From a virus (taxonomy: Duplodnaviria; Heunggongvirae; Uroviricota; Caudoviricetes): a DNA stretch of 14,040 bases. The notes beneath the pieces are model-generated. The model saw only the letters and a list, made by a program, of their open reading frames with translations, had not been told where the DNA came from and ran no database searches. The translations under genes and the position numbers were made by a program. Positions 1,932 through 14,040 of the stretch are shown here, piece by piece. The stretch is from the IMG/VR virus record IMGVR_UViG_2681813230_000003. One strand, given 5' to 3'. Within the stretch, counting starts at the first letter, position 1. Each line of letters starts with the position of its first letter.

Positions 1932-4425
1932 TCTGGTCGTTAACCTTGACGTTAACTCGTCGAAATTCAGCGAGCAGCTTAACTACGTCAAAAAAGAATT
2001 AAAACAGACCGGCAATGCGGCAAACGACGAAGCGTTACGTATCCAGCAGTCCTTCAGCCGACAGGAGAACGCCGCGCGTAAGGCCGGTATTTCAGTGGGT
2101 CAGTATAACGCCGCAATGCGTATGCTCCCGGCGCAGTTTACCGATGTGGCCACGCAGCTGGCAGGTGGGCAGAACCCCTGGCTGATTCTGCTTCAGCAGG
2201 GTGGTCAGGTTAAGGACTCCTTTGGCGGGATCATCCCGACATTCCGGGCGCTGATTGGGACGGTTTCCCCGTTGATGGTCGGCATTGGTGCATTGTCCGT
2301 TGCAACGGGCGCGTTGTTCTATGCCTGGTACCAGGGCTCTTCCACCCTGTCTGATTTCAACAAAACGCTGGTACTGTCGGGGAACACAGCCGGACTGACC
2401 GCTGACCGCATGCTGGCACTGGCGCGTAACGGACAGACAGCGGGGCTGACCTTCAACCAGACCAGTGAAGCGCTGACCGAACTTATCAACGCGGGTGTGC
2501 GTGCTGGCTCGCGCTTTGATGACATGAGCCAGGCGGTGGCGCGGTTTACCGATGCCTCCGGCGTGCCGGTGGAAAAGGTCGCAGCAGCCTATGGCAAGCT
2601 CGCAACTGACCCGACATCGGGCCTGATCGCGATGGCCCAGCAGTTCCATAACGTTACTGCTGAACAGATTGCCCATGTGGCGCAGCTGCAGCGTGCCGGT
2701 GATGAGGCTGGCGCACTGCAGGCGGCTAACGAGGCTGCTACAGCCGGATTCAACGATCAGACCAAAGCCATCCGCGACAATATGGGGACGATTGAATCTT
2801 CAGCGGACTCCCTGAGGCGCGCCTTCAAGTCGATGTGGGATGCAGCCCTCGATATTGGCCGACCTGACACCGCGCAGGAGATGGTGGCAAAAGCCGAAGC
2901 CGCGTTCAAAAAAGCCGATGAAATCTGGAACCTGCGTAAAGGTGACCGATATGTCAATGATGAGGCCCGCGCCCGATTCTGGAATGATCGCGAAACGGCC
3001 AGGCTGGCGCTGGACATGGCTCAGCAGCAGGCGGGAATTGCCAGGGCGAATGAAGAGAATGCTTCGCGCGAAGCGGCTGCGGAATCGGATCGCCAGAAGT
3101 ATGCTGCGCAGGCTCAGGCAAACTATGCCAAAACGCAGACGGCACTGGAGAAATACACGGCCAGGCAGAGCGAGCTCAACAAGGCGCTGAAAGAGGGGCG
3201 AATCCTCCAGGCTGACTACAACATCAACCTGGCTGCCGCGAAAAAAGAGTACGAAGACACCCTTAAAAAGCCGAAGAAGACCCCGGCAATCAGAACCCCC
3301 GCAGGTGCCCGTGCAACCGATACGGCCAGCGCCCAGACGCTGGAGCTGCAGGCACAGTTGCGCACCCTGCAGGAGCATAAGGGGATAAATGACACCATCA
3401 GTCAGCAGCGTCAGGAGCTGTGGCGTCAACAGTCCCGGTTTACAGTTCTGGAAGAGGCCGCGAAGACCCGGACGCTTTCTGCTGAGGAAAAATCCCTGCT
3501 GGCCAGTAAAAGCGAGGTGCTTTCCCGTGCAGAGCTGAACGCGAAGCTTGGCGATCAGATAGTGGCGCAGGAGCGGCTTAACCGCCTGCAGGATACGTCC
3601 CAAAAATACGTCACGCAGATCGGCGAGAAAACCAGGGCCCTGGCGGAAAGTGCTGGTATGAGCAGTCGTGCAGCACAACGCCGCAACGAGGAGGCCCAGC
3701 TTCTTCAGGGGTGGAAAAATGGTGGCGGTTCGGAGAACGACGCTGGTTATCAGAATGAGTTGCAGGCGCTGCAGGCGTATTACGCCGAGCAGGATAAGCT
3801 GCGGGACGACTGGCAATCCGGGGCCAAATCCGCATGGGCAGATTATGTTGATTCTGCTTCAGATGCTTATGGCCAGATGAAGTCGGCTGCTACCAGTACG
3901 TTTGATGGAATCGGGCAAAATATGGCTGACATGCTGACGCGCGGTAAGGCTGACTGGGCTGACTTCACCCGCTCCACGCTCTCCATGCTGACACAGATCC
4001 TGCTGAAACAGGCGATGGTAGGCTTAGTGGATTCAGCATCAACCGCGCTGGGATTTGCAGGTGGCGGTTATACCGGTTCAGGCGGGAAATATGAGCCAGC
4101 AGGTGTCGTTCACCGTGGTGAGTTTGTTTTCACCAAAGAGGCTACCAGCCGGATCGGCGTCGGCAATCTTTACCGGATGATGAAAGGCTATGCAACGGGA
4201 GGGTATGTCGGGGGCGGTGGTACAGGCCCGGCTGCAGCACCTTTCGGTGTCAGTGTATATGCCCCGGTGACGGTCGAGAATGCTTCCGGTAACGCACAGC
4301 AGCAAAACGACGGAGACAGGCTGGGTAAGGCGTATCAGCAGGTGATTAACAAATCTGTCAACGAGGGTATCGCCAGGGCAATCCAGCCCGGTGGGCTTAT
4401 CTGGAATGCGACCAATCGCAGGTAA
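1909..4425 (+). CDS. H: Tail tape measure protein (lambda gpH-like)
   Basis: 838-aa ORF with long blocks near-identical to remembered lambda gpH (GISVGQY.AAMRMLPAQFTDVATQLAGGQ.PWLILLQQGGQVKDSFGG; GGKYEPAG.VHRGEFVFTKEATSRIGVGNLYR.M.GYATGGYVG). It overlaps the end of T; AGGAGG lies 9 nt upstream. Confidence 0.92.
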   Translation: MAQTAVGDLVVNLDVNSSKFSEQLNYVKKELKQTGNAANDEALRIQQSFSRQENAARKAGISVGQYNAAMRMLPAQFTDVATQLAGGQNPWLILLQQGGQVKDSFGGIIPTFRALIGTVSPLMVGIGALSVATGALFYAWYQGSSTLSDFNKTLVLSGNTAGLTADRMLALARNGQTAGLTFNQTSEALTELINAGVRAGSRFDDMSQAVARFTDASGVPVEKVAAAYGKLATDPTSGLIAMAQQFHNVTAEQIAHVAQLQRAGDEAGALQAANEAATAGFNDQTKAIRDNMGTIESSADSLRRAFKSMWDAALDIGRPDTAQEMVAKAEAAFKKADEIWNLRKGDRYVNDEARARFWNDRETARLALDMAQQQAGIARANEENASREAAAESDRQKYAAQAQANYAKTQTALEKYTARQSELNKALKEGRILQADYNINLAAAKKEYEDTLKKPKKTPAIRTPAGARATDTASAQTLELQAQLRTLQEHKGINDTISQQRQELWRQQSRFTVLEEAAKTRTLSAEEKSLLASKSEVLSRAELNAKLGDQIVAQERLNRLQDTSQKYVTQIGEKTRALAESAGMSSRAAQRRNEEAQLLQGWKNGGGSENDAGYQNELQALQAYYAEQDKLRDDWQSGAKSAWADYVDSASDAYGQMKSAATSTFDGIGQNMADMLTRGKADWADFTRSTLSMLTQILLKQAMVGLVDSASTALGFAGGGYTGSGGKYEPAGVVHRGEFVFTKEATSRIGVGNLYRMMKGYATGGYVGGGGTGPAAAPFGVSVYAPVTVENASGNAQQQNDGDRLGKAYQQVINKSVNEGIARAIQPGGLIWNATNRR

Positions 4426-12793: not shown

Positions 12794-13033
12794 TTAATCA
12801 GCAACCAGCCACATGTCAGATTCTTCAAACATCTCTTCAAGCATACGATTAAGCCGTTCTTTCTCTGTTTTCGTGCAGTTGCTGTTTAGCGCGTTCGCCT
12901 GCATCGGCTTTACCTTCACTTCGGCACCAGGGAAAATCTGGTGCACCCGCTTCGTCAGTTCGGCCAGAATGATCTCCCTGGCCCCTTCGAGCCCCTCAAC
13001 ATTTCGCTTGTCATAAACCAGTTCAACAAACAT
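12794..13033 (-). CDS. dinI: DinI-family protein (DNA-damage-inducible protein I-like)
   Basis: 79-aa product MFVELVYDKRNVEGLEGAREIILAELTKRVHQIFPG...EKERLNRMLEEMFEESDMWLVAD aligns over its full length with remembered E. coli DinI (81 aa; ...LSRRIQYAFPD...KEDKQRISEILQETWESADDWFVSE). SD AAGAGGA lies upstream. The longer ORF-track ORF (to 13420) is an antisense run-on. Confidence 0.85.
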   Translation of the reverse strand: MFVELVYDKRNVEGLEGAREIILAELTKRVHQIFPGAEVKVKPMQANALNSNCTKTEKERLNRMLEEMFEESDMWLVAD

Positions 13034-13082
13034 ACCGATCCTCTTATAAGTGAAAACTGCCTGTGCTTGATCTGTTTTCATA

Positions 13083-13111
13083 AAAATACTACTGTATATA
13101 CATACAGTCAA
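13083..13111 (-). promoter_or_regulatory. Sigma70-type promoter for the dinI-like gene (-35 TTGACT, 17-bp spacer, -10 TATTTT on the minus strand)
   Basis: The minus strand reads TTGACT (13111-13106), a 17-nt spacer, then TATTTT (13088-13083). The LexA box lies within the spacer and overlaps the -35, the classic SOS-promoter geometry. Confidence 0.55.
13092..13107. promoter_or_regulatory. LexA operator (SOS box)
   Basis: CTGTATATACATACAG differs at one position from the CTGT-(AT)4-ACAG consensus and has flanking TA...TCA. It sits in the 99-bp divergent region between the dinI-like gene and orf99. Confidence 0.8.
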
Positions 13112-13132: not shown

Positions 13133-13432
13133 ATGCCTCGTCAACCGGATATTCGTGCTGCTTTTATTGCGGCCATACAGCAAAACCCGAAGGGCTATCT
13201 CTGTCTGCATACAGACAAGTTCATCGCTGAACTGCAGGAGAGGAACTGGCATTTCAGTCAGGCGGATGCAAATACATGGATCGAGCGATACCAGCCGGAC
13301 TTCGCCGATAAGACGACAAACGAAAGCGAGAACCGGTACTGGATCCTGCGTAACATGGGGAGGGTTCTGAGGAGTTATCTTGCGATGCGCTATAGGTTTG
13401 CCCCATCCCTCCCAAACCAACCTTTTTTATAA
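13133..13432 (+). CDS. Hypothetical protein (99 aa), divergent from the dinI-like gene; possibly SOS-regulated
   Basis: ORF with SD GAGGG 8 nt upstream of the ATG and a start about 25 bp downstream of the LexA box. Composition looks protein-like; the C-terminus is basic/aromatic (YWILRNMGRVLRSYLAMRYRF). No homologue recognised from memory. Confidence 0.5.
   Translation: MPRQPDIRAAFIAAIQQNPKGYLCLHTDKFIAELQERNWHFSQADANTWIERYQPDFADKTTNESENRYWILRNMGRVLRSYLAMRYRFAPSLPNQPFL
13407..13432. other. Candidate hix/gix-like recombination (crossover) site upstream of the invertase gene
   Basis: CCCTCCCAAACCAACCTTTTTTATAA matches hixL (TTCTTGAAAACCAAGGTTTTTGATAA, from memory) at 16/26 positions, including the AAACC core, the central AA, the T-run and the terminal ATAA. 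It lies 60 bp upstream of the invertase start. The left half-site is poor and no partner was found in the window. Confidence 0.3.
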
Positions 13433-13460
13433 CCATCAAAAATCTGGTGATGCTTCGCCG

Positions 13461-13487
13461 TTTCTCCTGTTTTCATAACAGGAGAAA
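13461..13487 (+). promoter_or_regulatory. Perfect 11-bp inverted repeat (stem-loop) that includes the invertase Shine-Dalgarno
   Basis: TTTCTCCTGTT (13461-13471), loop TTCAT, AACAGGAGAAA (13477-13487). The right arm contains AGGAG (13480-13484), 7 nt upstream of the invertase ATG at 13492. Confidence 0.45.
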
Positions 13488-13491
13488 TCCC

Positions 13492-14040
13492 ATGATTTAC
13501 GGTTATGCCCGAGTATCAACAAACCACCAGGACACTGAATTGCAACTAACGGCGCTCAAGTCAGCGGGTTGTGAGAAAATTTTTGAAGAGCATGCCAGCG
13601 GGAGGAAATCGAATCGGCCGGTTCTAAAACGGCTGATCGCCACTATGCAGCCGGGGGATGAACTGGTGGTCTGGAAGCTGGACAGGATAGGCCGCAACGT
13701 TCTGCATGCGCTGTTGATGTTCCAGCAGTTACAGGAAAAGGGTATCAACTTCCGCAGTATTACCGATGGCGTGGATCTCAAAACAGCCAGCGGCCGCTAT
13801 AACTTTCGTAACATCCTTTCCGCAGCACAATATGAATCTGATCTTAATAGCGAACGTACCTTAGCAGGGCTGGCCGTAGCCAGGGCAAAAGGGCGAGTTG
13901 GTGGTCGCAGGCCTAAGTTCACGGATGAGCAATGGCGGGAAATGGGGGAGCGGATGGCAACCGGTGAATCACGACAAAGCGTATCAAAAACGTATGGAGT
14001 AGGGCTCTCAACTCTGTATAAAAAGTTTCCAGCTAGCTGA
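13492..14040 (+). CDS. Serine-recombinase DNA invertase (Hin/Gin/Pin/Cin family)
   Basis: 182-aa product MIYGYARVSTNHQDTELQ...GDELVVWKLDRIGRN...GINFRSITD...ERTLAGLAVARAKGRVGGRRPK...GVGLSTLYKKFPAS is highly similar across its whole length to remembered Gin/Hin, including the catalytic Ser in the RVST motif and the C-terminal HTH. Start chosen at the ATG with an AGGAG SD; the ORF-track start at 13447 lacks one. The stop is the last codon of the window. Confidence 0.92.
   Translation: MIYGYARVSTNHQDTELQLTALKSAGCEKIFEEHASGRKSNRPVLKRLIATMQPGDELVVWKLDRIGRNVLHALLMFQQLQEKGINFRSITDGVDLKTASGRYNFRNILSAAQYESDLNSERTLAGLAVARAKGRVGGRRPKFTDEQWREMGERMATGESRQSVSKTYGVGLSTLYKKFPAS

Follow-up and report, generated by a model that had tools for sequence, protein, structure and literature searches.

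Invertases of the Din family, such as Hin, Gin, Cin and the Pin protein of e14, act on crossover sites (hix and gix for Hin and Gin, cix for Cin) and are controlled through their dependence on Fis and an enhancer; control is also exerted by overlap of the promoter with the crossover site. Because a serine invertase acts on any compatible site in the cell, including those of other prophages, its dosage determines both how often switching occurs and how likely recombination at unintended sites becomes. Occlusion of the Shine-Dalgarno sequence (SD) is, to our knowledge, not a described feature of Din-family invertases; a search of the literature on invertase promoters or ribosome-binding site (RBS) structure returned nothing relevant and no account of SD occlusion in the family. 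The breadth of cross-action is illustrated by PinE, PinQ and PinR, all of which invert the P segment of e14 and so affect resistance to phage T2 (PMC12529663). In phage phi80 (JX871397) an inverted repeat directly before pinL is annotated as the repeat_region "IR3" with no function given; its arms, CTTCTCCTGTT and AACAGGAGAAG, enclose a 5-nt loop and end 5 nt before the pinL ATG.

Outside this family RBS occlusion is textbook. In the MS2 coat-gene hairpins of de Smit and van Duin and in RBS-calculator systems a local stem contains the SD, and the more stable that stem, the lower the expected expression. RNA thermometers such as ROSE and fourU likewise pair the SD in a leader hairpin; these are weak, mismatched stems that melt at 37-42 C. 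The closest parallel in terms of the enzyme is the fold-back of IS10/Tn10, where the RBS for a rare DNA-rearranging enzyme is paired with an upstream complementary leader segment; this inhibition of transposase synthesis is said to have been described by Davis, Simons and Kleckner in 1985, and RBS sequestration is similar in the read-through transcripts of IS50 and IS2. The complementary segment of IS10 is found upstream of the element's own start site, and only transcripts from outside are silenced.

The stretch of DNA analysed here (14,040 nucleotides, hereafter the window) shares 99.9% identity with Enterobacteria phage HK225 (NC_019717) and runs from the tail genes to the invertase gene gp29. 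Its invertase belongs to the same family as Hin, Gin, Cin and e14 Pin and has a hix-like site upstream; the locus differs from those described in that the SD is occluded and there is no invertible segment. The occluding element is the counterpart of phi80 IR3, and it probably acts in RNA, as a cis translational attenuator of the invertase, a reading based on structure and conservation. The repeat of phi80 is already on record without a function and the class of mechanism is textbook, so that no new principle is involved. Prophages of the phi80 type are present in 88 of 5,426 complete E. coli genomes.

The invertase locus and its inverted repeat

The gp29 protein is an intact Din-family serine recombinase with Pfam matches to Resolvase and HTH_7, and its catalytic-serine N-terminus MIYGYARVST can be aligned to the N-termini of Pin, Gin and Cin; this alignment and the Pfam matches establish the ATG at 13492-13494 as the true start. 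A GTG at 13447 and an ATG at 13450 stand in the invertase frame with no stop between; a start at either would lengthen the protein by 14-15 residues, encoded across the hairpin. An N-terminally extended invertase beginning at either codon was rejected, as relatives do not have that start (GATACT or GATATT where HK225 has GATGCT). A near-consensus LexA (SOS) box, TACTGTATATACATACAGT, lies at 13090-13108 between the divergent dinI and gp28 genes; transcription of gp28, if SOS-induced, would continue directly into the invertase leader. The positions of these and the other features are collected in the table.

Features of the invertase locus, with positions numbered from the first letter of the window
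Feature	Position	Strand	Remarks
dinI	12794-13081	-	divergent from gp28
gp28, 99-aa ORF	13133-13432	+	no Pfam match
Din-type (hix-like) crossover site, CCCTCCCAAACC-AA-CCTTTTTTATAA	13407-13432	+	left half degenerate, right half -35-like
Candidate weak promoter	13426-13454	+	-35 TTTATA 13426-13431, 17-bp spacer, -10 GATGCT 13449-13454; read from alignments
Small upstream hairpin, GGTGA-TGCT-TCGCC	13446-13459	+	abuts and stacks on main hairpin; overlaps candidate -10
Complete RNA hairpin of 12 bp, closed by the G13460.U13488 wobble	13460-13488	+	predicted -15.4 kcal/mol at 37 C
Left arm (anti-SD), TTTCTCCTGTT	13461-13471	+	direct reading and repeat search
Loop TTCAT, 5 nt	13472-13476	+	direct reading
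Right arm, AACAGGAGAAA, with Shine-Dalgarno AGGAG 13480-13484	13477-13487	+	direct reading and repeat search
HK225 gp29, gene for a DNA invertase of 182 aa (Pin/Din-family serine recombinase)	13492-14040	+	closes the window

Both direct reading and a repeat search give two arms of 11 nt with 100% complementarity around a 5-nt loop, in agreement with an earlier reading of the sequence alone, which had described a perfect 11-bp repeat with the AGGAG of the invertase in its right arm; the span assigned there, 13461-13494, contains the stem but extends beyond it, its end at 13494 taking in the start codon. The AGGAG is followed by the invertase ATG (13492) at a distance of 7 nt, and 4 nt separate the stem from the AUG; four of the 11 stem pairs are G-C. 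Perfect hairpins with a stem of at least 11 bp and a loop of 3-10 nt occur exactly once in the window and once in the whole 45,366-bp HK225 genome, while dinucleotide shuffles of the window contain a mean of 0.03 such hairpins per shuffled window and have any at all in 3% of shuffles. Beyond the stem the sequence reads ATCCCATG on the + strand and CGGCGAAG on the - strand; a Rho-independent terminator was rejected because no T-run, and hence no U-tract, follows the 11-bp stem on either strand. Among the curated Rfam families there was no match near the gathering score, the sole hit (13 bits, E = 4.6) being attributable to chance.

Stability and conservation of the hairpin

The RNA from 13440 to 13510 folds at -24.9 kcal/mol (z = -4.7), and none of 200 shuffles folds as well; short contexts of 61-81 nt give z = -4.7 to -5.1, again with no shuffle as good. 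The stem is retained in both the MFE and the centroid structures of a 241-nt context and persists in every context tested. Forcing open the SD region (positions -15 to -5) carries a computed cost of 14.9 kcal/mol, which places the invertase first among 67 HK225 genes (median 5.0, sd 2.8) and corresponds to z = 4.6 against shuffled upstream sequence. At about -15 kcal/mol the stem is much stabler than natural RBS structures typically are, and the predicted MFE at 42 C is still -13.9 kcal/mol. An RNA thermometer of the ROSE or fourU type was rejected because the HK225 stem, although it pairs the SD as they do, is far too stable, being folded in silico at 70-80 C.

Of the 80 nearest loci in IMG/VR, with proteins 79-100% identical, 75 retain the stem, and the five exceptions are mEpX1-type loci with another N-terminus and another leader. 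Among the 80 loci the spacer from stem to ATG and the upstream leader are variable, and the loop reads TTCAT, TTCAC, TTTAC or TTTAT in relatives, with a 6-nt TTCACT in one divergent locus, L390. The arms, in contrast to the other non-coding positions, are nearly invariant (3 of 22 columns variable versus 18 of 27; Fisher p = 4e-4); the same holds for the left arm by itself, which neither codes nor carries an SD (2 of 11 columns versus 18 of 27; p = 0.011). A scan of IMG/VR for the core palindrome with any loop sequence allowed gave 90 occurrences, every one of them upstream of a pin-type ATG and within 9 nt of it, so that the element goes with the invertase start and with nothing else.

By count of pairs, 98.5% of cells are paired and nine of the 12 pairs are invariant, with shuffle controls that are only marginal. 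The outermost stem pair, which is U-A, C-G or U.G, is the sole covarying one, and at this position phi80 differs from HK225 in having C-G. Because nine of the 12 pairs never vary and the controls are marginal, the support for the stem consists of conservation together with one covarying position. L390 (IMGVR_UViG_2571042512_000008, ~3609-4200) is a singleton lineage in IMG/VR whose invertase is 67% identical and whose leader is otherwise unrecognisable; its stem keeps 10 of 11 pairs, with U.G at the base and the 6-nt loop. The crossover site of this locus also differs, reading TTCCTAAACC-GA-CCTTTCCAAGAA. A metagenome scan yielded seven relevant loci with identical stems, and a scan of genome contigs for more stem variants returned only relatives of at most 52% identity. 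Taken across the alignments, the pattern clearly points to purifying selection on the stem wherever the HK225/phi80 invertase lineage occurs. The sequence-only reading is thus upheld as to a stem that forms in the RNA of 13440-13510 with the SD enclosed, and its arms are conserved; its further suggestion, that occlusion would keep invertase translation low, fits a stem that is real, very stable and conserved.

Leaders of other invertase lineages are non-homologous to that of HK225 and likewise pair a pyrimidine tract with the SD, through stems that contain G.U pairs and loops of about 4-17 nt. In the e14 Pin/P2-like leaders CAUCUCC pairs with GGGGGAUG (one G.U) and GGCAU with the start codon, and in an e14 sub-lineage AUC.UUCCUG pairs with CAGGGA.GAU; the corresponding pairings are UUCACCU with GGGUGAA in mEpX1, GUCACCU with AGGUGAC in Eeyore and GCUUGCUAU with AUAGUGAGC in P1 cin. 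Against shuffled leaders, occlusion is significant in Eeyore (z = 3.1) and P1 cin (z = 2.0), reaches z = 1.6-3.2 in the e14-Pin types with one of four representatives falling short of the 5% level, and is not significant in the mEpX1-type (z = 0.4) or in Fels-2 (z = 1.1); by the same test it is absent from Gin/D108, Shae_phiSM, YenM and a P88-like phage. The register of the pairing differs from one e14 sub-lineage to the next, and RNAalifold accordingly recovered no consistent anti-SD helix for that lineage. Occlusion as a universal trait of the Din family was rejected, since it is missing in the Gin-type, YenM and P88-like leaders and not significant in Fels-2; with results so mixed, it is recurrent in the family and not universal. 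Of the invertase lineages compared, the HK225/phi80 type shows much the strongest occlusion. Across the e14-Pin, Fels-2 and Gin/D108 leaders the motif TGGCATCAT/TGGCATGAT (L349 3651-3659 in the E. coli K-12 pinE leader) does not vary; there the conserved TGGCATSAT is extended-(-10)-like and overlaps the anti-SD, and leaders of the HK225/phi80 type do not have the motif.

A probable translational attenuator and its alternatives

In the mechanism proposed here, a transcript that includes 13460-13488 would fold into the 12-bp hairpin, in which the anti-SD arm UUUCUCCUGUU, rich in pyrimidines, is base-paired to the purine-rich AACAGGAGAAA; the 30S subunit would reach the SD only in a rare open state, and translation of the invertase would be low and buffered whatever the amount of transcript. 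The expected drop in translation is estimated at ~50-fold, from an extra opening cost of ~8.7 kcal/mol and the empirical scaling of Salis, reportedly ~0.45 per kcal/mol; the strict thermodynamic model of de Smit and van Duin is said to give a far larger reduction than this. The hairpin most likely keeps the invertase scarce. Such a translational brake, if true, would explain the low output of a gene that ends a strongly transcribed, antitermination-prone tail operon, and mutations in the left arm would then be a simple handle with which to tune inversion rates in phi80-type prophages.

Transcription of the left arm would come either from a weak promoter with its -35 in the crossover site or from read-through originating in gp28 or in the late tail operon. 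A promoter scan of the + strand returned nothing at or above threshold; the candidate -10 is conserved as GAYRYT (GATGCT in HK225, GATACT or GATATT in relatives), and from its position we infer that mRNA would start at ~13460-13461, flush with the base of the stem. In relatives the small upstream hairpin conforms to GGYGA-N4-TCGCC and varies from C-G to U.G; it is all that a terminator scan flags (13445-13460), the T-rich left arm of the main stem being taken for the tail. No convincing terminator was found between tfa or gp28 and pin in HK225, the best being this same small hairpin; because there is no better separator from gp28 and the late tail operon, read-through transcripts are plausible, and all of them would carry the stem. 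On the - strand a promoter-like TTGATA-16-AATCAT is present at 13492-13519, its -10 being the complement of the pin start codon; it would yield antisense RNA across the hairpin, and such sites are not above chance in the scan.

Silencing might instead be confined to transcripts that arrive from upstream. As in IS10, the invertase's own promoter would then start within or after the left arm, and only the Q-antiterminated late tail transcripts or those of LexA-controlled gp28 would be shut off, protecting the phage from invertase overproduction. We regard this as unlikely for HK225, while the lack of a convincing terminator between tfa or gp28 and pin would suit it and several leaders of other lineages lean in its direction. 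The TGGCATSAT of e14-Pin, Fels-2 and Gin overlaps the anti-SD, and a start ~7 nt downstream would omit that segment, so that native transcripts of the e14 type may lack the anti-SD and only read-through RNA would be silenced; the long pinE leader of K-12 folds over the SD and AUG and the short leader does not; and the left arm of P1 cin overlaps a TATAAA hexamer. In the HK225/phi80 type, however, the hexamer lies ~9 bp further from the arm and a start at 13460-13461 would include the whole stem, so that the predicted transcript departs from the IS10 arrangement in carrying the arm itself; the stem also contains no promoter-like hexamers of adequate quality, and every promoter assignment on which the comparison draws is inferential. 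A broader version of the idea, advanced tentatively and as somewhat unlikely, is that several Din-invertase lineages (phi80/HK225, e14 Pin, mEpX1/Eeyore and P1 cin) acquired, independently of one another, an anti-SD arm that lies at or over the promoter of the invertase itself, which would uncouple invertase synthesis from terminator-resistant late-operon or SOS read-through and amount to an unnoticed fold-back insulation of the transposase style; the arm of the HK225 type would have moved into the native transcript, making repression constitutive.

The sequence-only reading had held that the repeat could equally be an operator in DNA. A dimeric protein, perhaps the invertase itself, would bind the 27-bp palindrome at about +1 to +27 and repress transcription by autoregulation, and a perfect palindrome is what such a protein would select; the dyad is kept, the symmetric T-A to C-G change at the outermost pair preserves it, the position fits a roadblock, and the outer hexamers TTCTCC/GGAGAA resemble the crossover half-site TTCTCCCAAACC over a span of 25 bp as against 26 bp. 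The resemblance is nonetheless expected of any anti-SD (CUCC), the inner half TGTTTT mismatches the CAAACC of the crossover site and the spacing is off by 1 bp. The palindrome moreover occurs only once in the genome, and no other site there is related to it; in L390 the dyad is broken by a T facing a G and the spacer is lengthened to 6, both still compatible with RNA pairing; and the stems of other lineages share no sequence with their crossover sites and contain G.U pairs and loops of ~4-17 nt. Equal weighting was on these grounds too generous, and the operator is retained as an improbable alternative. Most improbable is that the hairpin serves to stabilise the mRNA, with SD occlusion as a side effect: the candidate -10 puts +1 at the stem base, a start at 13460-13461 would set the hairpin at the 5' end of the mRNA, where it could block 5'-end-dependent decay by RNase E/RppH, and 5' hairpin protection is established for ompA-type leaders. 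A stabilising hairpin has no need to contain the SD, however, and the recurrence of SD pairing in unrelated leaders argues that occlusion is the selected feature; the start at the stem base is likewise a prediction only.

Crossover site and mosaic structure

A Din-type crossover site was defined as 26 bp in length, with a 2-bp core between half-sites of 12 bp that conform to TTCTCCCAAACC or TTATCAAAAACC. The HK225 site lies upstream of the stem at a distance of 28 bp, and its left half matches the P-segment site of e14, CCTTCTCCCAAACCAA (PMC12529663). No inverted partner site was found in the whole 45-kb HK225 genome; with one half-degenerate site and no inverted partner, the intact and highly conserved Pin of HK225 is an orphan with nothing to invert in cis. 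The suggestion that scarce invertase matches low-frequency switching is for this reason inapplicable in cis, and it is conceivable that HK225 Pin acts in trans on host prophages. The palindrome as a second crossover site or pseudo-hix was rejected, as only the outer TTCTCC is common to the two, the AAACC inner part is missing and the spacing differs. A mosaic joint lies at the core of the crossover site: from 13409 onwards there is homology to mEp237, phi80 and Omnitron, and in Klebsiella phage Kp4865-2 an HK225-like gp28 end with the left half-site is joined exactly at the core to a pin leader of the e14 type.
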